A stretch of DNA of 64,000 nt from NCBI GenBank assembly GCA_026392045.1, contig JAPLCU010000008.1, forward strand, positions 3,867 to 67,866, in the 5' to 3' direction. The position numbers and the translations under genes were made by a program. Positions 3 to 63,504 of this stretch are shown one piece after another. Under the pieces are notes generated by a model. It was not told the DNA's origin, ran no database searches, and saw only the letters and a list, made by a program, of their open reading frames with translations. This stretch comes from Armatimonadota bacterium (GTDB lineage: Bacteria; Armatimonadota; UBA5829). How positions within the stretch are numbered: the first letter of the stretch is position 1; every line of letters starts with the position of its first letter.

Positions 3-1193
3 ACATGGCTGGTGAAGTTGACTGAATATGATAGAATGGCGCTCCTGGGAATCATCAAGCGTCTCAAGGATGCCGGGTTCTATGAAGCGCTCCATTTGGA
101 CCTTGGCTGGGAAGCCCAAGCGCCGTTGAAAGTGAACTCAGCGAGGTTCCCGCATGGCATCAAGGAGATCGTTCGACGCGCAAGCGAGGCCGGGCTGGAT
201 ATGAGCTACTGGGTGAACCCGTTCAGCTGCAATTACTGGCTGCCTGAAACCGCGAAAGAACACCCCGAGTATGTGGTGCCGGGGAAAGTGTCGCCGAGGT
301 CGAATGCGAACGCGCTTTGCGTGTTGAGCGAGTATAGCGATTATGTAAAGAAGCGTTTCGTTGATCTCGTGACCGAAATGAACGCCCGTATGATAGTGTG
401 GGACGGTAATGATTGGAATATTCCGAACTGCACAGCTAGAAATCATGCGCACAAGAGCCAGACCGAGCTGGAAATAAATGCTCGAAAGAAGCTGGCGGAG
501 ATATGCGCCGCCGCGCACGATGCCCGCGAGGATTTGATTATATCGGCTTTCAGCCTGCCGATGGATAATCACAGGTTGTGCGCGCTCGATCAGGAGCAGA
601 TTTCGGACACGCACGAGTTCCCGATCATTCAGGCCGAGCTCATCCAGCGCCAGCAGCTTTTTCAGATGACCTGGGAACACCCTTTCAGGACGATTCGCGG
701 GAGCTGGTATGGCGTGGGTTGGCACGAGTCTGGAGACCTCGCACAGCATTCTATGGATGAATTGAAGCACGCTGTCATGAGCATGATCGCAAACGGCGCC
801 GCGCAATCTGGCGGGAGCGTAGACCTCTCATCAGCCAGCCCTGAGTTTGTAGAGTTTCTGACGAAGTTTTATGCGTTTAGAAAGCGATTTGAGAAGTATT
901 TCAATACATATCAGCACATACTTGGCTTTCCCGATGGCGAAAACATAGACGGCTCCGGGCACATTGTGGACGGGGTCGGCTTTATAGCGCTCATAAACCC
1001 GACGCGATCCGAAAAAACCATGCGCATTCCGCTGGATTCCGCCGAGCTGGAGCTCTCGCGCGAGAAGAAATATAACCTCACCGATTGGAGCGGCCTCGAG
1101 CACGGCAATTCACTAGGCGTAGCAAAATTCGATTCTCCGATTACGATAGAGATTGGGCCGCTTGAGGTGAAGTATATTGGGGTGAATGTGTGA
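3..1193 (+). CDS. Glycoside hydrolase, alpha-galactosidase-like (GH36/clan GH-D TIM barrel); 5' end probably cut by the window edge
   Basis: The frame is open from nt 3. The motif series LDLGWE, FPHGIKEIV, GLDMSYWVNPF, EHPEYVV, MIVWDGNDW parallels the conserved strands of GH36 alpha-galactosidases. Family call by eye only. Confidence 0.45.
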   Translation, partial: TWLVKLTEYDRMALLGIIKRLKDAGFYEALHLDLGWEAQAPLKVNSARFPHGIKEIVRRASEAGLDMSYWVNPFSCNYWLPETAKEHPEYVVPGKVSPRSNANALCVLSEYSDYVKKRFVDLVTEMNARMIVWDGNDWNIPNCTARNHAHKSQTELEINARKKLAEICAAAHDAREDLIISAFSLPMDNHRLCALDQEQISDTHEFPIIQAELIQRQQLFQMTWEHPFRTIRGSWYGVGWHESGDLAQHSMDELKHAVMSMIANGAAQSGGSVDLSSASPEFVEFLTKFYAFRKRFEKYFNTYQHILGFPDGENIDGSGHIVDGVGFIALINPTRSEKTMRIPLDSAELELSREKKYNLTDWSGLEHGNSLGVAKFDSPITIEIGPLEVKYIGVNV

Positions 1194-1197
1194 GGGG

Positions 1198-1228
1198 AGT
1201 GGAAAGTGGAAAGTGGAGAGTGGAGAGT
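1198..1228. repeat. Heptamer tandem array (AGTGGAR) x4
   Basis: Reads agtggaaagtggaaagtggagagtggagagt. An inverted counterpart lies at 57748-57779. Confidence 0.85.
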
Positions 1229-1248
1229 CCGGAAGGGAAGGGAGGACA

Positions 1249-1455
1249 ATGGTTGGATGGTTCGATAGTCCGATGGCGGGGAAGGGATTAGGCTGGGATT
1301 TGGGGGTTGGGTTGGGTCGATGGTTTGATGGTCTGATAGTCCGATGGCGGGGAAGGGATTAGGCTGGGATTCGGAGGTTTGTCTGGGTCGATGGTTGGAT
1401 GGTTCGATAGTCCGATGGCGGGGAGGGGATTAGGCTGGGATTTGGGGGTTTGGTT
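1249..1455. repeat. ~71-bp tandem repeat x3 (GATGGTY heptamers plus a CGATGGCGGGGAAGGGATTAGGCTGGGATT core)
   Basis: Three consecutive near-identical units are visible. A single inverted copy lies at 3036-3104. Confidence 0.9.
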
Positions 1456-1469
1456 GCATATCCAGGGGG

Positions 1470-1493
1470 TTTCGGGAAAAGGGTTTCCCGAAA
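1470..1493. repeat. Hairpin family A: TTTCGGGAAA-AGGG-TTTCCCGAAA (perfect 10-bp stem)
   Basis: Direct reading. Other members lie at 2993-3016, 8944-8968, 12552-12576, 59163-59188 and 63385-63443. Confidence 0.9.
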
Positions 1494-1530
1494 GAACGAA
1501 GGGGTTTGTGTGTATCGAGTCGAAGAGTTA

Positions 1531-1558
1531 GCTTCGGGACGAGAAACAGTCCCGAAGC
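1531..1558. repeat. Hairpin family B: GCTTCGGGAC-GARAAACA-GTCCCGAAGC
   Basis: Nine-bp stem. Near-identical copies lie at 39101-39128 and 63256-63281. Confidence 0.9.
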
Positions 1559-1630
1559 ATATAAAAGGGTTTTTCGAAAGAACTAAAGAACTAACAGTAG
1601 TGATGAGGCGCCGAAAGTATAAGAGGTGAA

Positions 1631-2980
1631 ATGATGGCAGCATCAGCATATGATTCAACGTCAACTGCGTCGTCAGTTCTCTTACGGTATCTGAAGCCGA
1701 AGGTGTTGAGGGGCAATGGTCATTTTATCTGCCAGGATAATGACTTCCGTGCTAAGTTCACGCTTGAATGGTACCCGCACGACATGATCATCACAATTAG
1801 GGGAACCCAGGTTAGCGAAAACCAGGGATTGTTTGGAGAGACGAGAAACCGCTGGAGCTTGGATGGCCAGCTTGTAGATGGCCGCAGTATAAGAGCAAGT
1901 CTGTTCCTGACTCAATCAACATTTTCTTTGCCTGATGTACGAAAGACATTAATGTCTTTTATTCCTTCAGACAGTGTTCTGATAGGTGAGGTTTTGGATT
2001 CACCACCAAGTGAGGTGAGATACCCACTCGTTGGGTACCACGATGACGCTTTCAGGATAGAGGACGATGGCTGGACCATAAAGACGGAGGCAACAGAAAT
2101 CACCCGCAATCAAGCAAAGCGCCTTCAGACAGGATGGAGATTGACTACGGAAGGCTTGGCTCTTCGCTTAAGTCATCAGGACGCGACGCTGGAGCAGTAT
2201 TCCGAAAAAGCACGGCAGCTCATGCATCTGCTCTCTTTAGCCAGTGGAAACGGGATCACATTCCATCGTCAGATCGTCTCCTGGACTGATGAAACCAACT
2301 GCGAGATATACCGACAAGGAATACGATATGAGCCTGGCCCCGGCCCCTGCGTTCCATCGTTTTGCATTCAGCACTTTCTTGACCAGACACTACCTACGTG
2401 GCGATCCTGGAAGCAGGAGAAACGGGATATCTGCCGCTTGATCATCGACTACCTTGCCTTGTCTGGCACTGGTTACCTGGATACTCGTTTGATCAATATC
2501 GGGCAGGCGTGGGAGGTCATAGCAACCGCGTGGGGCCCGGAAACTCAACCGAGCTGTGTGGAGAAAGCACTCAAGGATCGGCTAAAAGAAGTGTGGCGCA
2601 ACTGGCGCAGGGAGCATGCGAACGCTGACAAGGATGCTCATCTTTGGGAAAGAATTACGCGCGCATTCCATTGGACAACGGCCTTAGCGAAGATTGAAAC
2701 ATTCGCTAACAGTCGTGACCTGAATCTGGAAAGAATTGGGCTTGACATTAAAGAGCTCAAAAGATCACGCGACTCAGTTGCTCACGCGGGGAAGATGCCG
2801 CAGGATATGAATGATAATCGGTCACACGCTCTTTCTGTTCTTCGCAATGCACAATTCGGTCTTCAGTTGGCTTTGCTCGTGGACCTTGGGTATTCGGATT
2901 TTGTGGAAAACGATGAGAACGGCTTGTGCACCTATGTTAAGATCAGAAAACTACTGAAGCAGAATGGACAAGACGATTGA
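1631..2980 (+). CDS. Hypothetical protein with a beta-rich N-terminal half and a helical C-terminal half carrying a HEPN-type R-x4-H motif (ApeA-like candidate)
   Basis: 449-aa ORF with an AGAGGTGA RBS-like sequence upstream. The motif LKRSRDSVAHAG fits R[ND]xxxH. I recognise no housekeeping family. It is convergent with the methyltransferase at 3105-4709. The HEPN assignment is inference. Confidence 0.6.
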   Translation: MMAASAYDSTSTASSVLLRYLKPKVLRGNGHFICQDNDFRAKFTLEWYPHDMIITIRGTQVSENQGLFGETRNRWSLDGQLVDGRSIRASLFLTQSTFSLPDVRKTLMSFIPSDSVLIGEVLDSPPSEVRYPLVGYHDDAFRIEDDGWTIKTEATEITRNQAKRLQTGWRLTTEGLALRLSHQDATLEQYSEKARQLMHLLSLASGNGITFHRQIVSWTDETNCEIYRQGIRYEPGPGPCVPSFCIQHFLDQTLPTWRSWKQEKRDICRLIIDYLALSGTGYLDTRLINIGQAWEVIATAWGPETQPSCVEKALKDRLKEVWRNWRREHANADKDAHLWERITRAFHWTTALAKIETFANSRDLNLERIGLDIKELKRSRDSVAHAGKMPQDMNDNRSHALSVLRNAQFGLQLALLVDLGYSDFVENDENGLCTYVKIRKLLKQNGQDD

Positions 2981-2992
2981 CATTGCTTGTTC

Positions 2993-3104
2993 TTTCGGGA
3001 AACCCTTTTCCCGAAACCGCCGGGTTATACGGATAGCCCCGTTCCCTCCCCGCCATCGGACTATCAGACCATCAAACCATCAGACCATCGGCCCAAACTA
3101 ACCC
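2993..3104. repeat. Inverted copy of the left-flank module (hairpin A plus GATGGTY/CGATGGCGGGGAGGGA unit)
   Basis: The reverse complement of 2993-3104 aligns with 1391-1493. The shared core is GGTTTCGGGAAAAGGGTTTCCCGAAAGAAC plus GATAGTCCGATGGCGGGGAGGG. Confidence 0.8.
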
Positions 3105-4709
3105 TTACAGCCCCAACTTCCCCTGATCCCGTTCTTTCACCAGTTTCTTCCCTGAGCCGCTCTTGAGGGAGTAGCCTTGGGGGAAGTCGAACTCTTTGTT
3201 ATCCTCTAAGAGTTCTTTGATGGTGCGAATCTGGAGTTTTGGGATTTTTCTGCCGCTTGGGGCTGTGAAGAAGCCTGTTTCGTCGGCTTCGTTATACATG
3301 CCTTTGGTGGGTGTGTCAAGGCAGATGAAGAAGCCCATTGCGGCTTTTTCGCGCTCTACCACGTGTGAAAAGTCTCGGATTGCGCTGGGTGTGAGGTGGC
3401 CGCCTTTTACCTGGCATACGGCGCTTTGCAGATTGTCTTCCAAGTCACGGAAGAATACTTTGCCGTCTATGCCTTTATCCCCGACTTTATCAGGCTGCGG
3501 CACTCCCGAGGCGAGGCCGACCGCCCAAATCTCGAACTGCTTCGGGCTTTGCTCGAAAAGCTTTCGAGCCGAGTATGCGTCCTTGGGGTCGCCGATGATA
3601 TCATAATCTTGCTTGCGCTTGAGCTCGAAGTCGTTTGCCAGCCTGCTTATCATAAGGTCTATTGCTATAAATGTGATGTCCATTCCAATCCATTTGCGCC
3701 CAAGCTTCTCAGCAGCTACAACAGCAGTGCCGCATCCACAAAACGGGTCAAGTATTATGTCGCCCGGGTTGGATGATGCTTTTATGATACGCTCAATCAA
3801 GGCCAGGGGTTTCTGGGTAGGGTAGCCCATGCGCTCTGCAGATGTGTTTCCAATACGCTGTATATCAATCCACACATTTTGAAGAGGCTGTCCTGGTGAA
3901 TCATCCAAATACACTTTCAATCCATCCATTCGCGGCGTTCCGTCTTTCTTCAGGAGTATACGTCCTTCAGCAAACCATGTTTCTAATTGTTCTATTGTGT
4001 AACCCCAGCCGCGTGACGAAGGCGGCATCGTACCACGCCATTCAAATTTGCCTGAATTACTACCGGTTCTTTCTGCCGTTAAATCATCGCATCTGTACCA
4101 GCGCTCATCTTCATCTTGTTTATATCGAGATAATTGCTCTTCAGAATAATCTGTGTACACAGGATTCCAAATGTAATTATCACTCTTCGTATAGAAGAGG
4201 ATAGTGTCCGAGACGTTGCCATATCGCCGAGCAGTGTTGTGGCTGCTTGTTCGCTTCCAGGTTATCTCGTTTCTGAATCTAGTGGCTCCAAACACCACAT
4301 CCAGTATTATCTTTAGGTAATGACTCGCCACCGGGTCACAATGCAGGTAAAGGCTGCCGGTGGGTTTGAGAACTCGGTGAAGTTCCATCAGGCGCGGGGC
4401 CATCATCACGAGATATGCCATCATATCGCTCTGGCCAAGTATCTTGTATAGAGCTTCCATCAAATCAAAGAGTCGAGCATTTCCGGGGTGATCAAAAAAC
4501 TCTAAATAGTGGCGTCTGCTCCATCGCCAAGTATCCTCAAACGCGGTTATCTGCGCCTGGTTTTCATCCTTCTTCGTCTGCTTGAAAAGGACATTATAAT
4601 TCCGCGCAGAGTTGAAAGGCGGGTCAAGATACACCAGATCGATGGATTCATCCGAGATATTCTCCCGCATTACCACCAGATTATCGCCATAGAAGAGTTT
4701 GTTTCGCAT
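3105..4709 (-). CDS. Beta-class N4-cytosine/N6-adenine DNA methyltransferase fused to a C-terminal Mrr-like restriction-endonuclease domain
   Basis: LVYLDPPFNS (motif IV, DPPF) precedes ILDPFCGCGTAVVAAEKLGRKWIGMDI (motif I). The C-terminus has GDKGIDGKVFF, AVCQVKGG, IRDF and MGFFI, matching the Mrr catalytic-core pattern D..QxK. Confidence 0.85.
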   Translation of the reverse strand: MRNKLFYGDNLVVMRENISDESIDLVYLDPPFNSARNYNVLFKQTKKDENQAQITAFEDTWRWSRRHYLEFFDHPGNARLFDLMEALYKILGQSDMMAYLVMMAPRLMELHRVLKPTGSLYLHCDPVASHYLKIILDVVFGATRFRNEITWKRTSSHNTARRYGNVSDTILFYTKSDNYIWNPVYTDYSEEQLSRYKQDEDERWYRCDDLTAERTGSNSGKFEWRGTMPPSSRGWGYTIEQLETWFAEGRILLKKDGTPRMDGLKVYLDDSPGQPLQNVWIDIQRIGNTSAERMGYPTQKPLALIERIIKASSNPGDIILDPFCGCGTAVVAAEKLGRKWIGMDITFIAIDLMISRLANDFELKRKQDYDIIGDPKDAYSARKLFEQSPKQFEIWAVGLASGVPQPDKVGDKGIDGKVFFRDLEDNLQSAVCQVKGGHLTPSAIRDFSHVVEREKAAMGFFICLDTPTKGMYNEADETGFFTAPSGRKIPKLQIRTIKELLEDNKEFDFPQGYSLKSGSGKKLVKERDQGKLGL

Positions 4710-4791
4710 AATGCCATAACTATACCATGAGGACGGGGGATATGTGAAGAGGGGGACCGATGGATTTTGGGCTATGCCGAAAGAGCAAAGA

Positions 4792-4850
4792 AAATGCTAG
4801 ATTTGAAAGCTTATCATGCTGCTCATCCTTCGAGAGCCTCAGGATGGCGA
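4792..4850 (+). repeat. Conserved 59-nt element E (AAATGCTAGATTTGAAAGCTTATCATGCTGCTCATCCTTCGAGAGCCTCAGGATGGCGA)
   Basis: Identical to 61717-61775 by direct reading. It contains the hairpin CATCCT-TCGAGAGCCTC-AGGATG. A degenerate inverted copy lies at 22257-22299. Confidence 0.85.
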
Positions 4851-4861
4851 TGTATACACAT

Positions 4862-4933
4862 AACCTTTACACCAACCTTTACACTAACCTTTACACTAAC
4901 CTTTACACCAACCTTTACACCAACCTTTACACC
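4862..4933. repeat. 12-mer tandem array (AACCTTTACACY) x6
   Basis: Six head-to-tail units lie directly after element E. They generate the artefactual ORFs 4760-5020 and 4767-4955. Confidence 0.95.
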
Positions 4934-5098
4934 AAACCCTATGGGATGCTACTGATTGTTTCTCATAATAGCAAGTCCATAACAACCGTAATTCCACCTG
5001 AAATGCACAAAATATGGTAAAAATACCTGCATAATAATGAGTTTATGGCACAAATTATGCAGCATGTTTCATTGAGTTTGCAGCTCAAGGTGATTACC

Positions 5099-6025
5099 AT
5101 GTTTAAGCGCATATTCATCACATTCCTCACATTCCTCGTATCGCTGAGCCTGTCTGGCGCGTGCTTCGCCGCCGTTGTAGCATACACTAAGGTAAAAGTG
5201 GCTGGAACAGTCGCGCACGTCGTGACGGCTGATTTGGGCAATAGCGGCGTAAAAGTCACCGTAGCGCTCGCTAAGGGTGGCCCCGGCAAGCAGGAATCAT
5301 TTAAATCCATTGTAAAGCGAGTAAAACCGGCTGCTGCTATCACCGGCACGTTCTTCGATACCAAAACCCTATTTCCCACCGGCGACATTGCCATGTACGG
5401 CAAAGTGGTGCATCACGGCTCTATCGGGGCTGCTTTGTGCATTGATTCAAACAATAAGGCGAGCGTGGTCAGCCTGAAAGAGGGCCGCAAGTATGGCTGG
5501 ATTGACTACGAAACGGTTTTGTGCGCAGGTCCGAGACTGGTCTGCAACGGCAAAGTGGCGATCTCGCTGAAGCGTGAAGGTTTCAGGTCTTCTCTGTCTA
5601 CTCCGGCGCGGCGCACTGCGGTCGGTATCACCAAGACCGGAAAAGTGCTGTTCGTGACAATTAATCGTAAAGCTTCCTTGCACGATATCGCCAGGGTGTT
5701 GGTGAGCATAGGAGCGAAGGACGCTCTGTGCCTGGATGGCGGCTCGTCCGCTGCGTTTTACAGCGGCGGCAATTTCTTAGCCGTTCCAGCTCGTCGGCTG
5801 ACTAATCTCCTGGTTGTCTATTCCGAAAAGGAAGATTATCAGAACGCCAAGAACGAACTTGCTCCGGCAGAATATTTCGCTCAATTGCTTGTCAATCAGA
5901 CGGAACCTGCAATCTTTGCAACTTCGAACTCGCCGATTGCAGCGTCTGATGACTTATCTAAGGCAGTATATCAATCTCCGACTTCGGATGGCATTCCTGC
6001 TGAAATTAGAGAGAGCCGAAACTAA
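5099..6025 (+). CDS. Secreted phosphodiester glycosidase family protein (NAGPA/DUF2233-like)
   Basis: Signal peptide MFKRIFITFLTFLVSLSLSGACFA. Motifs AAITGTFFD, LCAGPRLV, RTAVGITKTGKVLFVTI and DALCLDGGSS are typical of the family. Start moved to the internal ATG at 5099. Confidence 0.65.
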   Translation: MFKRIFITFLTFLVSLSLSGACFAAVVAYTKVKVAGTVAHVVTADLGNSGVKVTVALAKGGPGKQESFKSIVKRVKPAAAITGTFFDTKTLFPTGDIAMYGKVVHHGSIGAALCIDSNNKASVVSLKEGRKYGWIDYETVLCAGPRLVCNGKVAISLKREGFRSSLSTPARRTAVGITKTGKVLFVTINRKASLHDIARVLVSIGAKDALCLDGGSSAAFYSGGNFLAVPARRLTNLLVVYSEKEDYQNAKNELAPAEYFAQLLVNQTEPAIFATSNSPIAASDDLSKAVYQSPTSDGIPAEIRESRN

Positions 6026-12524: not shown

Positions 12525-12680
12525 GAGCTGTGATGGTTAAGTTGTTAAGTTGTTTCGGGAAACCCTTTTCCCGAACCCCATCGGCTCAGATGTTCAGTTT
12601 GGAATGCTGCGGGAATGACGCTAAAGGACGATGCCTCAATTTTCATCAAACGTCAATTCCCGCAGAATACGCAATAATTC

Positions 12681-35842: not shown

Positions 35843-38800
35843 CTATACAATCGGAAACCCGCCATGCCCCAATATCGACTCATCAATCAGCCCCATAAGC
35901 CGAATCGTATCGCCAAGCGCGGCTGCTGTGCGTCTGTAGTGCTCAAGGTCATCGTGGCCGAGGGTGCGGCCTTTGCGGTCTTTGAGCCACTTCTGGCACA
36001 CCTGATACCCGCCGATGTGGAACTCCCACACTTCCGGCGGCACCCCATCAAAAAACTGCGCCTTGTTTATCCACACGCGCCCTCCGGCTCCCTCTCCTGG
36101 GGGAGAGGGTTGGGGTGAGGGCGCAACCTCTGGCTCATACCGCACTTCCTCCACAATATCCGAGCCGCTTTCAGGGTACCCGGGCAGGTTTGCGCCTGTT
36201 GCGTCCATCAGATGCAGCGAAACCAGCTCATCGCCCAGCGCGCAAAGCTCGCGGAAGAGGTCTGCGCTGCTTGTCAACGGCAGACGCGGGAAGTCTATTT
36301 TCAAAAACTCGGCGTATCGCTTGCGGTAGGTTGGCGAGTGGAAGACGGCGTACATATACGCGAAAATGTCCTCCGGGCCGAAAGTGGACACGCGGTCGCC
36401 CTTGCCGTCCGAAACAAAGTCCAAACCAAGCTTTTCAGAGAATTCTTTTATAAACTCAGGCGCAAGGTTCGGGCGGCGTCCGCCAGGGGCGTCTGTGGGT
36501 TTCTCCGTGTCGAATTGGATTGATGGGTAGAGGTAGAGGGGTGCTATACTCATAATGCCCTTGTTGCTGTAAAACGCGCGGTTGTCTACCAAAACCGACG
36601 TAGCCAGGAAATGTGTGTAACACTCACTAAGTGCCACTTGCCGCATAAAGACCAGTCCAATGTTGCGACCAAAAAACATATGTCGCATGACATCTTGGCG
36701 ATTCCGCGTTACGACTGACTTATCATATGTGATGCATCTAGTATCAAATGGGCGGTACAGAATATCCTTAATCACCGAACGCGGCAACCTGTGGTTATTA
36801 GCCAGAACGGTAGCTTCTTCAGCGGAGAACGCTATTGTTCTGGCGTCCTGACCGGTGACTACTCCCACATTATTAACTGGCAAAGCATGAGTAAGATTCC
36901 AGTATTCTTCATACTCCACTCTAAGTGTGTCATCTCGCGGCACAAAGAAATAATACGGCTTCGACGGGCTTATCTCTGTCCATTGCGTATCAGCAACAGC
37001 CTTCTCCGAAAGCCACTTATACTTACCAGCTCTATCACCCCAAAGCTCCGCATGCCGCACTTTGCACTGATCTGGCGAGCCTTCATCTCGCTTTACGAAG
37101 ATTCCTATAGCAACGCCCTGCTGAATATCAAAAACATTCTTATCAGGCGAGCCGTCCGGCGCTTTTTCTTTCTTCTTGCTATTGCCGTGCAAATCGAGCA
37201 GCCAGATATCATCAAATGTATCCATCAGACTCTTGCGCATCCCCCTGAATGTGGGGTTGTCCAAATAACCGTGATTGGTGATGAATGCCAACACGCCATG
37301 ACCGGTGCGTTCTATGCGCCACTGGGCGAATCGAATGAACTTCACATAGTCATCCTGCAGCCATTTTGGGTTTTTTTCGCCCAGCGGTTTGCCATCTACA
37401 TAGTAATAATCTTGTATCAGCTTGCCGATGAATGTGGCTGTTTTCTTTTTGTTTTCATTTATGTACCAACTTCGATTCACTGAATGGCCTGAATACGGCG
37501 GATTTCCGAGCACCACCATCACGGGAGCGTCCATCTTTACTCGGCTTGCCTCGTTTGCTTCTTCAACCACCCACTGAGCAAAGAGATTTACCCCCGCGAA
37601 CTTCTCGGCTTCCTCCAGCGTGTTAGTAAGATAAACCCCAAGCCGCTCCTCACCTGCAAAATCATAACCGGATTGCGCAAGCTGCAGGCCGAGCTTCATA
37701 TGCGTAACTGCATAAGGGGCCATCAGCAGCTCAAAACCAAACACTCTCGGCAGCAAATGCTCATGCACATAGCTTGACCACATCCCCTGCTTGCCCATGA
37801 ATGACTCGTGAATCAGATCCACCACGCCATGCAGAAACGTGCCGGTGCCTGTAGCGGGGTCCAATATCTGCACCTTATGGACCTGCTTCTCGCCATCTTT
37901 GGTTTTCACGGTAACTTTGCTGGAATCCGCAAGGCCATCGCTCAAGCCAAAATCTTTTTTGAGAATATGGTCCACACTGCGCACTATATAAGAGACAACA
38001 GGCTCCGGCGTATAGTAAACGCCGCGAGTTTCGCGCAATTTCGGGTCATAAGCAGCCAAAAAGGTCTCATAAAAGTGCACAACCGGGTCTTCCAGCCGCG
38101 TTCGCTTGCCGAAACCCGTGAGAATAGCTTCCATATCTGCATGCGCAAGCAGGTTCGCCACATCATCGACCGCCCATGCGATTCGATCATCCAGGCTATA
38201 ACCCGCTATTTCCTGAAACATCTTGCGCAGAAACGGGTTTGTCTTAGGCAGATCATAGGCAGCGTGTTCGCGAGTGAAGTTTGCTCCATCTTTCGTATTG
38301 CACCGCGCGGCGAAGAGGCCATAGCAGATGGTTTGCGCATACATATCGGCAAATTGTTCTTCTTTGAGGTCATGAAGAAGGGTCTTGCGGAAGCCGTCCA
38401 TTTGGTCATGCAGCGATCCGGTTTTGTCTTCATCAGTAAGGGCCTTGGTAGTGACATCGCGAATCAGGCGCGCAAGATGAGCCATGCGCTGTGCCAGTTC
38501 CTTGGGGCTGCCAACCGTAGGCGTCTGAGTCACCAGAAACTCGCTTAAAAGCTCGCGAACTTTCTCAATGCCCTCTTTGTCTTCTTTAAGCTTGCCATGC
38601 GAATCCACCCTGCCAAGACGAGCCGTCAGCCGATGCTCCCCGCCGACATACCAGCGAAACTCCAGATAATCGGTAAGAATCAAATTGCCGAGGCTTTCAC
38701 GGTAGCGGCGCAGTTGGTCGGTTTTCTCGACCTTGTCCAGAATCTCATCCACATTCTTCGTCTCAATATAACCGATAGGCACGCGCCTGGCGGTAATGAC

Positions 38801-38989
38801 GAAATCCGGCGCGCCGCAAGCATGGCGCTTGGGCTCGTTTGTGGCAGTAATTCCGCTCTTGAGGCCTTCTACAAGAGATTGCAACGCGGCGCGGTAAGTA
38901 TGCTCGGTGGCATTACCCGCTGCCAGCGCTGATCTGATTTTACTTATATACTGGGCTATTAGTGGCATACTGTTAAGATTATACAACAA
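35843..38989 (-). CDS. Single-polypeptide Type IIG/IIL-like restriction-modification enzyme (PD-ExK nuclease + N6-adenine methyltransferase + Type-ISP/YeeA-like C-terminal specificity domain)
   Basis: N-terminal GAPDFVI and GYIETK (PD..ExK). ILDPATGTGTFL (motif I) and VLGNPPYSG (NPPY motif IV). C-terminal FHSPTYRKRYAEFLKIDFPRLP and GGYQVCQKWLKDRKGR. No helicase domain. Confidence 0.8.
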   Translation of the reverse strand: MLYNLNSMPLIAQYISKIRSALAAGNATEHTYRAALQSLVEGLKSGITATNEPKRHACGAPDFVITARRVPIGYIETKNVDEILDKVEKTDQLRRYRESLGNLILTDYLEFRWYVGGEHRLTARLGRVDSHGKLKEDKEGIEKVRELLSEFLVTQTPTVGSPKELAQRMAHLARLIRDVTTKALTDEDKTGSLHDQMDGFRKTLLHDLKEEQFADMYAQTICYGLFAARCNTKDGANFTREHAAYDLPKTNPFLRKMFQEIAGYSLDDRIAWAVDDVANLLAHADMEAILTGFGKRTRLEDPVVHFYETFLAAYDPKLRETRGVYYTPEPVVSYIVRSVDHILKKDFGLSDGLADSSKVTVKTKDGEKQVHKVQILDPATGTGTFLHGVVDLIHESFMGKQGMWSSYVHEHLLPRVFGFELLMAPYAVTHMKLGLQLAQSGYDFAGEERLGVYLTNTLEEAEKFAGVNLFAQWVVEEANEASRVKMDAPVMVVLGNPPYSGHSVNRSWYINENKKKTATFIGKLIQDYYYVDGKPLGEKNPKWLQDDYVKFIRFAQWRIERTGHGVLAFITNHGYLDNPTFRGMRKSLMDTFDDIWLLDLHGNSKKKEKAPDGSPDKNVFDIQQGVAIGIFVKRDEGSPDQCKVRHAELWGDRAGKYKWLSEKAVADTQWTEISPSKPYYFFVPRDDTLRVEYEEYWNLTHALPVNNVGVVTGQDARTIAFSAEEATVLANNHRLPRSVIKDILYRPFDTRCITYDKSVVTRNRQDVMRHMFFGRNIGLVFMRQVALSECYTHFLATSVLVDNRAFYSNKGIMSIAPLYLYPSIQFDTEKPTDAPGGRRPNLAPEFIKEFSEKLGLDFVSDGKGDRVSTFGPEDIFAYMYAVFHSPTYRKRYAEFLKIDFPRLPLTSSADLFRELCALGDELVSLHLMDATGANLPGYPESGSDIVEEVRYEPEVAPSPQPSPPGEGAGGRVWINKAQFFDGVPPEVWEFHIGGYQVCQKWLKDRKGRTLGHDDLEHYRRTAAALGDTIRLMGLIDESILGHGGFPIV
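36070..36125. repeat. Palindromic REP-like element embedded in-frame in the Type IIG CDS
   Basis: Contains CCCTCTCC-TGGG-GGAGAGGG followed by TTGGGGTGAGGGC. It encodes PEVAPSPQPSPPGEGAGG between the conserved VRYE and RVWIN blocks. Confidence 0.75.
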
Positions 38990-39179
38990 TGGTCTGATTT
39001 CCTTCGTTTCAGTATGCTGATGTAATGAAGTTTGATGAATTTTGCTGCGTTATTGGTCATCGACATTCCCAGCATACTACAGTTTACGTAAGAAGGCTGG
39101 GCTTCGGGACGAAAAACAGTCCCGAAGCATATCAATCCCATGACCCAAGTTAGTTTAGGCTCATTTATGCATATTGGTA

Positions 39180-47741: not shown

Positions 47742-47769
47742 GTTCGTAATCTCCTTCGGAGATAGTTAA

Positions 47770-47832
47770 AAGTCATAAGTCAATAAGTTATAAGTTATAA
47801 GTTATAAGTTATAAGTCATAAGTCATAAGTTA
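47770..47832. repeat. Heptamer tandem array (ATAAGTY) x9 inside the oxidoreductase operon spacer
   Basis: Reads aagtcataagtcaataagttataagttataagttataagttataagtcataagtcataagtt. The same unit forms inverted arrays at 63147-63233. Confidence 0.9.
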
Positions 47833-47921
47833 AAAGGTTGGCCTGTGCTGAGCAGCATGATAACTGCGTTTGGGCAGATTTGCAATCTCGCCTGTCCCTT
47901 CTATTCCCTGTTCCCTGTTTC

Positions 47922-59161: not shown

Positions 59162-59200
59162 GTGTTTAGGGAAACCCCTTTCCCGAAACCACCGCTTGGT

Positions 59201-63233: not shown

Positions 63234-63441
63234 GACTACGCTTGAGAACCTCACCCTTCGGGACGAAAAACAGTCCCGAAGTATATTGTTGTGACTTTAT
63301 CCGCCACCGCTAGCAGGCAGGCGAAGTCCTTCCGATATAGCACTAGATACAAAAATGGACCAAGATCACATTCTTGTTGTAACTGGAAACCCTTTTCCCG
63401 ATACTTCCGAGCACACACATTTCGGGAAAGGGGTTTCCCGA

Positions 63442-63504
63442 AATAACTAATACGGCAACCAGTACTACATTAGCTACGAACTCGGGTTTCGCTTGGCTCG
63501 CTAG
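63442..63504 (+). pseudogene. Orphan 3'-terminal fragment of an FGE-sulfatase paralogue
   Basis: The last 36 nt (CTACGAACTCGGGTTTCGCTTGGCTCGCTAGTCT) are identical to the end of 61939-63021. The preceding 30 nt are codon-aligned but diverged and contain an in-frame TAA. The sequence just downstream, CTCGCCCTTT, matches that downstream of 43473-44396. Confidence 0.6.

Follow-up and report, generated by a model that had tools for sequence, protein, structure and literature searches.

ORF 1631-2980 of the window (the whole 64-kb stretch of DNA analysed here) encodes what is, by a modest balance of probability, a self-contained single-polypeptide HEPN-type toxin or defence effector. The HEPN fold, RNase activity, target, trigger and defence role of its product are what we infer for it. 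The protein belongs to a small family without annotation, with 33 homologues at the 90% cluster level and 205 representatives at 50% identity. A preliminary description had noted a 449-aa reading frame with a beta-rich N-terminus and a helical C-terminus carrying RDSVAH, and the ORF list and an AlphaFold2 model bear this out. It had also offered three readings, namely an ApeA-like effector beside a restriction–modification (R-M) module, a coupled MTase/HEPN system and a cognate endonuclease of the neighbouring methyltransferase. The first is favoured, in that an ApeA-like design is supported and membership of ApeA is not.

The AlphaFold2 model (pLDDT 87.8, pTM 0.84) places beta strands at residues 24-230 and helices at residues 243-418, and the C-terminal domain is modelled with a pLDDT of 90.4. 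A Shine-Dalgarno-like AAGAGGTGA lies ahead of the gene at 1621-1629, and a second ATG at 1634, giving 448 aa, may be the true start; the called product on the Logan contig L058 has 448 aa and is identical to the window protein. The hairpin motif in the leader is a second dispersed motif of the genome, with further copies at 39102 and 63256. The features of the locus are collected below.

Coordinates of features at the locus (window positions)
Feature	Position	Strand	Details and basis
Melibiase-like gene	12-1193		Pfam
Left repeat module	1244-1497	+	Three tandem 71-nt G-rich units (1244-1456), then palindrome (1470-1493)
Strong hairpin in ORF 1631-2980 leader	1532-1557	+	Folding energy -20.7 kcal/mol, z-score -8.3
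HEPN-like single-gene effector ORF	1631-2980	+	449 aa; ORF list
N-terminal beta-rich domain, candidate sensor/regulatory domain	1694-2335	+	Residues ~22-235; AlphaFold2 strands
C-terminal helical domain, probable HEPN-type RNase domain	2336-2977	+	Residues 236-449; sub-threshold Pfam HEPN_Apea
E295 in QAWE motif, conserved upstream acidic residue	2513-2515	+	E in 156/158 homologues (99%)
R380-D-S-V-A-H385, R-x4-H motif, putative catalytic site	2768-2785	+	Homologue conservation, helix end
Right repeat module	2989-3104	-	One unit and palindrome (2993-3016); reverse complement of left module
Solitary beta-class N6/N4 DNA methyltransferase with C-terminal Mrr-like domain	3105-4709	-	534 aa; DPPF and FCGCG motifs
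Mrr-like PD-(D/E)xK-fold domain of methylase	3279-3497	-	Residues 405-477
NAGPA phosphodiester glycosidase	5045-6025		Pfam

An R-x4-H motif in a single protein is nothing unusual by chance, and the weight of the motif comes only from its invariance among homologues. The stretch LKRSRDSVAHAG, residues 376-387, includes both R380 and H385. Conservation of this pair, which the preliminary description had proposed to check, was found: H385 is invariant (164/164 homologues), R380 is kept in 155 of the 164 (95%), and residue 381 is D, N or H in 163 of them. Together with E295, these positions show the highest conservation in the family. In the AlphaFold2 model, E295 lies within helix 283-301, and the C-terminal end of helix 373-386 carries the motif, ahead of a loop and then a long helix. 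An Rx4-6H motif at a helix end, a polar residue after the R and an upstream acidic residue are features of HEPN domains (PMC3710099).

The HEPN and ApeA profiles named in the preliminary description were indeed matched, but below threshold. Pfam HEPN_Apea aligned with residues 290-422 over profile positions 3-133 of 136 (E 0.0099), with a score of 16.8 bits against a cut-off of 24.4. Across 31 family members, only HEPN-clan families and ApeA_NTD1 were matched, all below the Pfam cut-offs: HEPN_Apea in seven (best E 4.4e-4), HEPN_RiboL-PSP in two, HEPN_MAE_28990 in one and, weakly, ApeA_NTD1 in four (best E 0.034). The best-supported families among these matches are PF18862 (ApeA-NTD1) and PF18739 (HEPN Apea). 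No PD-(D/E)xK, HNH or GIY nuclease fold was matched in Pfam by the protein or the 31 members. Ten distant members gave no bridging Pfam match above cut-off; nine had no match at all and one (P0166) a sub-threshold HEPN_Apea match (E 0.017). Nothing matched the protein in PADLOC, in NCBIfam or, by sequence or profile, in PDB. Foldseek likewise recovered no significant match for the HEPN fold anticipated earlier, with nothing at E <= 0.001 for the whole model or the C-terminal domain against PDB or for the whole model against BFVD. The sole HEPN protein listed was Csm6 (E 4.7), and the beta-rich N-terminal part retrieved only LolA-, PilZ- and HtrA-type beta barrels (E >= 0.01). When aligned by hhalign with experimentally studied ApeA relatives, the family places R380/H385 on R502/H507 of Ec2ApeA, with the local consensus LKxaRDSVAHtGKmP in the family and IYRaRNxIVHsGxtP in ApeA; the probability was 2-8% over 64 columns, and the alignment comprises the catalytic helix only.

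The lack of a significant match to any HEPN structure, the sub-threshold standing of every profile match and the low profile-profile probability would all fit a protein whose helical domain has another fold. The conserved R, H and E would then serve to bind a ligand or to catalyse a different reaction, and the weak Pfam matches would stem from a short motif together with helical composition. We consider this quite unlikely. The sub-threshold matches come from independent members, fall in one clan and span the whole HEPN_Apea profile, and the motif is HEPN-typical, with R-[DNH]-x3-H at a helix end and an acidic residue upstream. Moreover, HEPN domains are hard to detect, and even the validated ApeA proteins of E. 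coli gave no match to Pfam HEPN_Apea at E <= 0.1.

The sequence comparisons support the description of the 449-aa protein as probably HEPN-like and ApeA-like in design. Like the ApeA/BMEI1217 HEPN family (Anantharaman et al. 2013), it has an N-terminal domain rich in beta strands (~230-300 aa) ahead of a putative HEPN-type domain; both families show R-[ND]-x3-H, and both occur as single-gene units that sometimes adjoin R-M genes. With the ApeA anti-phage system (Gao et al. 2020; Ec1-Ec4ApeA, bioRxiv 10.64898/2026.01.26.701840), it shares a single-protein organization, a C-terminal HEPN-type R-x4-H, the similar local motif R[ND]x[IV][AV]H[ST]G.xP, an N-terminal region that is potentially a sensor, and the absence of a partner gene. 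However, studied ApeA proteins are ~580-600 aa long and built mainly of alpha helices, their N domain being catenin-like and their Mid domain PafA-like (bioRxiv 10.64898/2026.01.26.701840), whereas the window protein is shorter, has a beta-rich N-terminal half and is not matched by PADLOC. Membership of ApeA is therefore not supported, given the sub-cut-off Pfam matches, the blank PADLOC and Foldseek results and the different, alpha-helical N-terminus of studied ApeA. Since all Pfam matches lie below the cut-offs, the family would be at best a divergent sister group of ApeA/BMEI1217 that current models miss.

The gene is a self-standing unit without a conserved partner: no neighbouring gene is conserved across 32 non-redundant homologue contexts. 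Integron gene cassettes with canonical attC sites account for roughly a third of the homologues, and in at least nine independent groups an attC with R''/L''/L'/R' boxes lies directly downstream of the homologue. The R' box of the upstream attC is the reverse complement of the downstream R'' box in L017 (GTTATGC/GCATAAC) and L029 (GTTGTGC/GCACAAC), and at 6/7 bases in L043 (GTTATGC versus ACATAAC). Further attC sites found by covariance model are all on the gene strand of the homologue, which indicates cassette arrays, and in L048 an IntI1-like fragment adjoins the homologue in divergent orientation. Integron-cassette HEPN proteins (PDB 3jrt family) and phage-resistance integron cassettes (BRiCs) are comparable: in both, a HEPN or defence gene travels as a single-ORF cassette with attC, and homologues are also known from outside integrons, where they lack attC. 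Integron cassettes are known to carry phage-defence genes, with homologues outside integrons that lack attC (bioRxiv 10.1101/2024.07.02.601719). The 3jrt family, a minimal HEPN domain found in Gammaproteobacteria, gave no sequence or structure match to the window protein. Unlike these cassettes, the window copy is not itself one: no attC was found at it at E <= 1 by covariance model, and it sits in a clade without attC. Searches of annotated collections of phages and plasmids found no homologue.

Conflict genes neighbour the homologues in several contexts, including Type ISP/IIG R-M, TIR, HEPN/RES-NTD1-RES, AbiJ_NTD4, AbiGi, Ras-Mrr, NACHT and DrmD-like SNF2 helicase genes as well as transposases, and about half of the contexts have plain housekeeping flanks. 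In a crude control, PADLOC matches at E 1e-5 were about equally frequent in the window (36 families for 33 other proteins) and among homologue neighbours (111 families for 130 proteins), so enrichment in defence islands is without statistical support. The cassette contexts also suit a stress or addiction toxin, that is, an HEPN RNase that induces dormancy or stabilizes integron arrays or islands and has no role in phage defence. This same role has been proposed for HEPN domains in integron cassettes (PMC3710099), and toxin-antitoxin genes share arrays with the homologues, as with Gp49 and an HTH protein in L011. Against this possible, though unlikely, account, the cassettes are single-ORF with no conserved antitoxin-like partner, and the long N-terminal domain suits a sensor-effector better than a type II toxin.

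The immediate flanks are a glycosidase and a phosphodiester-glycosidase gene, as previously described. The inverted modules of ~110 bp said to bracket the gene pair are real, but they enclose only the HEPN-like ORF and leave the methylase outside, because the right arm lies within the 124-nt gap. The left module is moreover the last in a row of three tandem units, of which the preliminary description makes no mention. Complementary arms pair 1458-1497 with 2989-3028 (40 nt, 93%) and 1319-1365 with 3035-3081 (47 nt, 89%), and a 19-mer of the repeat unit occurs four times against 0.01 expected. Long inverted repeats that bracket exactly one gene could delimit a 1.5-kb segment that moves or inverts: a gene captured in MITE-like fashion, or an on/off switch for the putative toxin gene that works by recombination. 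The metagenome contig L058 matches window 1472-3018 exactly, breaking at both palindromes, and the L015 homologue is an insertion, as its flanking 45-nt direct repeats indicate. Such a segment is nevertheless improbable. No recombinase or transposase is nearby (ORF list, Pfam), no other homologue has flanking inverted repeats, and assembly is expected to break contigs at inverted repeats. Copies of the palindromic part, TTTCGGGAAAnnnnTTTCCCGAAA, are scattered between genes of this genome, usually just 3' of one, and with five of them in the window this part is not locus-specific. Each module trails one of the flanking genes and is oriented with it, and this alone accounts for the inverted arrangement: the left lies 3' of the glycosidase gene, and the right, starting 12 nt past the HEPN-like stop codon, lies 3' of the methylase gene.

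The previously noted convergence with an amino-MTase having an Mrr-like C-terminus is confirmed (gap 2981-3104). The methylase matches PF01555 N6_N4_Mtase (E 1.4e-45) and PADLOC MTase_II (E 4.7e-72), and its residues 405-477 score 28.1 bits with NA-iREase1 (cut-off 27) and 20.3 bits with Mrr_cat (cut-off 21). It shares the architecture of solitary beta-class methyltransferases (PF01555 plus NA-iREase1/Mrr_cat) over its full length. In the predicted Mrr-like domain, D415 and K435 are invariant in the methylase and three compared homologues; the sole notable difference is the middle (D/E/Q)xK residue, Q433 in the window and S in the three. On plasmids of Mesorhizobium, Microbacterium and Rhizobium, homologues with 46% identity across 93% of the length occur as solitary genes, annotated 'site-specific DNA-methyltransferase'.

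That the two genes form one functional unit, whether as a coupled MTase/HEPN system or with the ORF as cognate restriction endonuclease, is suggested by their adjacency and convergence, by Type ISP/IIG R-M enzymes adjoining two independent homologue groups, and by ApeA/BMEI1217-family HEPN genes reported from within R-M operons in epsilonproteobacteria (PMC3710099). The proposed check for co-occurrence largely refutes it, and we regard it as highly improbable: a PF01555-type methylase-Mrr fusion lies beside the homologue in 0/32 non-redundant contexts. With no conserved neighbour there and with methylase homologues solitary, neither the coupling nor the endonuclease role is supported, and the plasmids carry no such HEPN-like gene. 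The 449-aa protein also matches no restriction-nuclease fold, and the genes are not an operon because they converge and a repeat module separates them. The methylase is an independent, solitary neighbour of the HEPN-like ORF and not its partner.

For the favoured HEPN-type effector, the active site in the C-terminal helical domain would comprise R380, D381, H385 and E295. By analogy with other HEPN proteins, dimerization of the protein would create an RNase site that needs no metal. ApeA cleaves the anticodon loops of tRNAs and works through abortive infection, with R502A as the catalytic mutant of Ec2ApeA (bioRxiv 10.64898/2026.01.26.701840), and we propose by analogy that a mechanism of this type may extend to the window protein. 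The beta-rich N-terminal half may hold the RNase off until a cue arrives, for example phage infection or another stress; the activated enzyme would then cut cellular tRNA or mRNA, and the host cell would enter growth arrest, as in abortive infection.

The residues of the R-x4-H motif in the 449-aa protein, together with the residue that follows the arginine and an acidic residue upstream, are the best-conserved positions of its family overall. All 31 aligned family members have R380 and H385, and among the homologues covering the region H385 is retained in 164/164, R380 in 155/164, a D, N or H at residue 381 in 163/164 and E295 in 156/158. A lone R-x4-H is common by chance, and the motif therefore draws its weight from this conservation of the putative active site, which the preliminary description had named as a check. 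HEPN domains have been defined by a four-helix up-down bundle, by an Rx4-6H with N, D or H straight after the R and by a second acidic residue upstream, typically in Ex3[KR], and the motif has been described at the end of a helix (Anantharaman et al., PMC3710099). The family combines a conserved Rx4-6H with a polar residue following R. In the AlphaFold2 model (pLDDT 87.8, pTM 0.84), which is a predicted and not a solved structure, R380-H385 takes that position, closing helix 373-386 at its C-terminal end ahead of a loop and the long helix 397-418, and E295 falls in a helix, in a QAWE context with no clear Ex3[KR]. The same model gives the protein a two-domain design, with residues 24-230 beta-rich and the C-terminal half helical.

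The ORF map agrees with the preliminary description in placing the gene convergent with a 534-aa methylase ORF across a gap of 124 nt, and the flanking genes are Melibiase-like and NAGPA-like. An SD-like AAGAGGTGA lies ahead of the ORF, and a second ATG at 1634 may be the true start, since another assembly has an identical product called at 448 aa. Homologues number 33 at the 90% cluster level and 205 as representatives at 50% identity, and neither set contains a named member or one with a precomputed Pfam domain.

Profile searches tie the protein only weakly to any described family. Its sole Pfam match is HEPN_Apea (PF18739), at E 0.0099 and 16.8 bits versus a gathering cut-off of 24.4, and this match spans 131/136 profile positions despite the sub-cut-off score. 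HEPN_Apea is matched by 7/31 members (best E 4.4e-4; none reported above cut-off) and ApeA_NTD1 (PF18862) by 4/31 (best E 0.034), the window protein not being among the latter, and further matches are to HEPN_RiboL-PSP in two members and to HEPN_MAE_28990 in one. The HEPN-clan matches that the preliminary description proposed to look for are present, but all lie below cut-off. When ten divergent representatives, including the 776-aa fusion protein P0150, were scanned against Pfam, no bridging match above a cut-off appeared, and only P0166 matched HEPN_Apea, sub-threshold at E 0.017. PADLOC (no family at E <= 1), NCBIfam, PHROGs and PDB sequence/profile searches with the 449-aa protein returned nothing useful, searching with a profile of the C-terminal domain at E <= 10 recovered the same family only, and tblastn of annotated phage and plasmid collections gave no match to the family. 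The structure search on which the HEPN prediction was to be judged was likewise empty: Foldseek recovered no match at E <= 0.001 with the full model against PDB and BFVD, nor with a separate C-terminal domain model (pLDDT 90.4) against PDB, and the N-terminal half draws generic beta barrels only. A main rival explanation is that the helical domain has a non-HEPN fold; the empty fold searches are compatible with it, and the conserved motif, its modelled helix-end position and the nearly complete span of the HEPN_Apea match argue for HEPN. The 449-aa protein is probably a member of the HEPN superfamily, closest to the Apea clade, and its family is a separate one that is captured by no current model.

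ApeA offers the nearest experimentally studied comparison (Gao 2020; Ec1-4ApeA), with tRNA anticodon-loop cleavage, abortive infection and ligand-activated oligomers as its features, and its activation by deoxydinucleotides has recently been worked out. Ec1ApeA and Ec2ApeA were recovered from E. coli genomes, seeded by the supplement sequences of bioRxiv 10.64898/2026.01.26.701840, and 20 ApeA relatives formed a reference alignment. Against it, hhalign aligned both alignments of the family over 64 columns around the catalytic helix only (E 0.004-0.024, probability 2-8%), and the profile-profile comparison sets R380/H385 onto R502/H507 of Ec2ApeA, of which R502A is the catalytic mutant (bioRxiv 10.64898/2026.01.26.701840). 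On this low probability and the PADLOC result, homology of the window protein to validated ApeA is not supported. The architectures also differ, in that ApeA has three mostly alpha-helical domains (N, Mid and HEPN_ApeA) whereas the N-terminal half of the window protein is predicted to be beta-rich; common to both is a single gene without a conserved partner (32 non-redundant contexts for the family). The validated E. coli ApeA proteins themselves have no Pfam HEPN_Apea match at E <= 0.1, so that the Pfam model misses the defence system bearing its name and a sub-threshold score is compatible with relatedness. Of the preliminary reading as an ApeA-like effector, a probable, divergent single-gene HEPN-type effector is favoured, but membership of ApeA is not supported.

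The ApeA searches yielded some further observations. Ec1ApeA lies at 3001-4806 of its E. coli locus (L010), and an Ec2ApeA-like gene at 3001-4752 of L009, within a P2-like prophage tail region. Of 352 Ec2ApeA relatives found, 120 were listed, and 0 of these 120 have a precomputed Pfam domain. Ec2ApeA has a faint match to MauJ (E 0.048, residues 348-387), and a gene matching MauJ (Pfam, E 1.4e-15; L043 7360-8088) lies 3' of a cassette homologue, hints that MauJ-like proteins may be HEPN-related.

The neighbouring gene encodes, as described, an amino-methyltransferase with an Mrr-like C-terminus. PF01555 matches at E 1.4e-45 (156.4 bits versus a cut-off of 26.7), and the beta-class order is evident from DPPF (motif IV, residues 29-32) preceding FCGCGT (motif I, 323-328), both invariant in the methylase alignment. 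Residues 405-477 match NA-iREase1, an 'inactive REase' family, at 28.1 bits (cut-off 27) and Mrr_cat at 20.3 bits, just under the cut-off of 21; D415 and K435 of this domain are invariant, and residue 433 in (D/E/Q)xK, a Q in the window protein, is S in the three homologues compared. Plasmids of Mesorhizobium, Microbacterium and Rhizobium carry full-length homologues of the methylase (41-46% identical over ~93% of the length) as solitary genes annotated 'site-specific DNA-methyltransferase', and no endonuclease or HEPN-like gene lies next to them. Reciprocally, a PF01555 methylase-Mrr fusion adjoins the HEPN-like homologues in none of the 32 groups of contexts. The convergent arrangement had suggested a coupled MTase/HEPN system or, alternatively, that the 449-aa protein is the cognate endonuclease of a Type II R-M pair. 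Both proposals are largely refuted, the former by the lack of co-occurrence of the two genes and of any conserved neighbour, and the latter by the same lack of co-occurrence and by the lack of a nuclease-fold match to the 449-aa protein in Pfam. The family is independent of the methylase, and annotation should not merge the two genes into a single R-M or defence system.

No partner gene emerged from the wider genomic context. The 52 homologue loci collected collapse to 32 non-redundant groups, across which no neighbour gene is conserved, and candidate partners were rejected because an all-against-all BLAST of neighbour ORFs revealed only local sharing. Only two kinds of neighbour recur, the Type ISP/IIG R-M enzymes of two groups and the HEPN/RES-NTD1-RES protein found directly 3' of the gene in L004 and L049. 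Several contexts have conflict or mobile-element genes (Type ISP R-M, AbiJ_NTD4, Ras-Mrr fusion, NACHT, IS66, DrmD-like SNF2 helicase, TIR, AbiGi, RES, transposases), and others have plain housekeeping flanks. The PADLOC scan returned 36 families from 33 other window proteins versus 111 families from 130 homologue neighbours; with a similar rate in this crude control, family counting is uninformative and was set aside as a measure of defence-island enrichment. The association of the family with defence islands is suggestive, not demonstrated. The other main rival is a role as a stress or addiction toxin instead of in defence, which fits the same data as the defence reading does.

Individual loci add local detail. 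The HEPN/RES-NTD1 plus RES protein (~450 aa) begins 4-6 nt 3' of the gene in these two independent contexts (L004 9255-10619, L049 2220-3557), and the two may form a lineage-specific two-gene arrangement. A Type ISP/IIG R-M enzyme of 1048 aa is also encoded in the window, 33 kb from the HEPN-like gene; REase_MTase_IIG was matched at E 1.7e-285 in the PADLOC scan of window proteins and assigned by BLAST to this ORF, which is 38% identical, full length, to the neighbour of the L002 homologue and 51% to a fragment in L040. One block recurs in a Dehalococcoidaceae MAG (L001) and a Clostridia MAG (L002/L011), bins of different phyla; in it a Type ISP R-M gene and the HEPN-like gene are accompanied by an attC-like site of 104 nt and two further ORFs (176 and 270 aa). 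The HEPN-like proteins of the two are at least 90% identical, which suggests either horizontal transfer or a binning error. The homologue in L015, the closest in clade to the window copy, sits between 45-nt direct repeats (698-742 and 2088-2132, 98% identical), the left one overlapping the upstream ORF at its end. These repeats do not resemble attC, and the arrangement has the look of a footprint left by the insertion of a single gene. L044 also has a Melibiase-like neighbour, but shared synteny with it was dismissed as coincidence because the glycosidases are 27% identical over 99 aa only.

The most informative result of the analysis is that the family is mobile as integron cassettes. In homologue locus L017 the gene lies between two elements of 53-60 nt that follow the attC layout (R'' xxYTAAC, L'', L', R' GTTRRRY and an extrahelical base), and the upstream R' (GTTATGC), when reverse-complemented, reads exactly as the downstream R'' (GCATAAC). 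The same correspondence is exact in L029 (GTTGTGC/GCACAAC) and holds at six of seven bases in L043 (GTTATGC versus ACATAAC); an upstream R' matching the downstream R'' is the signature of a cassette boundary. An attC covariance model (R1) built from 14 sites gave 23 matches at E < 0.01. Every one is on the strand of the gene, and some, from outside the training set, lie farther along the contigs concerned, a sign of cassette arrays. An attC lies directly 3' of the gene in at least 9 independent groups at E <= 2e-5. Directly upstream of the gene in L048 and divergent from it is a fragment of an IntI1-like tyrosine recombinase (16-240, - strand; 47% identical to IntI1 over 75 aa, an approximate figure), and this is the layout expected of an integron's first cassette. 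The window copy was rejected as a cassette: its locus has no covariance-model match at E <= 1 and no heuristic attC, and its palindrome is without R''/R' boxes. In a neighbour-joining tree the attC-bearing copies cluster, and the window protein groups with L016, L015 and L044, all without attC. Phage-defence genes are known to ride in integron cassettes and to have homologues elsewhere without attC (bioRxiv 10.1101/2024.07.02.601719), and HEPN domains in cassettes were noted in 2013 (PMC3710099). The cassette form shows that the ORF is a self-sufficient functional unit, which favours a single-gene system and disfavours coupling to the methylase.

The inverted repeat modules (~110 nt) around the window gene are real, but they do not bracket the gene pair as first described; the 449-aa ORF alone lies inside and the methylase outside, and the left arm, itself real, belongs to a tandem array that had been missed. 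The 64-kb window contains five intergenic copies of their 24-nt palindrome TTTCGGGAAAnnnnTTTCCCGAAA, a dispersed element; every copy adjoins short tandem repeats, and most come shortly after a gene, usually 12-30 nt past the stop codon. It looks like a REP-like or 3'-end element of the source genome; a role as intrinsic terminators was rejected for the palindromes (no U-tract, modest folding z-scores). The left module lies 3' of the glycosidase gene on the + strand and the right module, on the - strand, 3' of the methylase gene and oriented as that gene is. Since each module trails a flanking gene in the gene's own orientation, they can be read as two copies of one 3'-flank module, and the simplest reading is that this module belongs to two convergent genes with the 449-aa gene in between. 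That the repeats let the segment flip, as a mobile or invertible segment, would suit their inverted arrangement, but this has little support given the dispersed palindrome and the gene-wise orientation of both modules.

Features of the window around and beyond the HEPN-like gene
Feature	Position	Strand	Remarks
SD-like AAGAGGTGA	1621-1629		ahead of HEPN-like ORF
HEPN-like ORF, 449 aa	1631-2980	+
Methylase ORF, 534 aa	3105-4709	-
Type ISP/IIG R-M enzyme	35843-38989	-
Left module	1244-1456		three tandem 71-nt G-rich units, then 24-nt palindrome 1470-1493
Right module	2989-3104		one unit and same palindrome; reverse complement of left module
TTTCGGGAAAnnnnTTTCCCGAAA palindrome	1470-1493, 2993-3016, 12553-12576, 59165-59188, 63420-63443		intergenic
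CTTCGGGACGARAAACAGTCCCGAAG hairpin	1532-1557, 39102-39127, 63256-63281	+
Tandem-repeat-rich intergenic sites	1194-1456, 4862-4935, 9911, 15315, 21969, 47764-47836, 52385, 57748, 59128, 61770

A second dispersed motif is a strong hairpin, CTTCGGGACGARAAACAGTCCCGAAG followed by (C/T)ATAT (folding energy -20.7 kcal/mol, z-score -8.3), which at 2/3 sites precedes a + strand gene start by 70-120 nt and has no Rfam match. Short tandem repeats with periods of 7, 12, 16, 30 and 71 nt are unusually frequent in intergenic regions of the source genome, and the first such site in the window is strongly G-rich on the + strand (GC skew +0.45). Rfam and tRNA scans of the window were empty, so no tRNA-linked island is present.

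Mechanistically, the C-terminal domain would adopt a HEPN fold and, as a HEPN-type dimer, would act as a metal-independent RNase that depends on R and H and cuts an RNA target. An infection or stress cue would activate this RNase through the N-terminal domain, and activation would lead to growth arrest. We tentatively suggest, as a possibility that we do not favour strongly, a so far undescribed family of HEPN-type immune effectors, each a single protein with a beta-rich sensor domain of a new kind, that would spread mainly as integron cassettes in environmental anaerobes and would be a chromosomal-integron counterpart of BRiC cassettes with a trigger unlike that of the alpha-helical ApeA. Single-gene HEPN effectors are already known, and the most useful new aspect is an unannotated, integron-borne family of ~200 clusters at 50% identity with no Pfam, NCBIfam or PADLOC model. 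Its cassette is a compact unit of ~1.35 kb, a single ORF plus attC, that is directly clonable and testable. If confirmed, a distinct family would join the single-gene HEPN abortive-infection effectors, a different infection signal could emerge because the N-terminal domain is unlike that of ApeA, and the link between sedentary integrons and defence would reach metagenome bins of Desulfobacterota, Dehalococcoidia and Clostridia.
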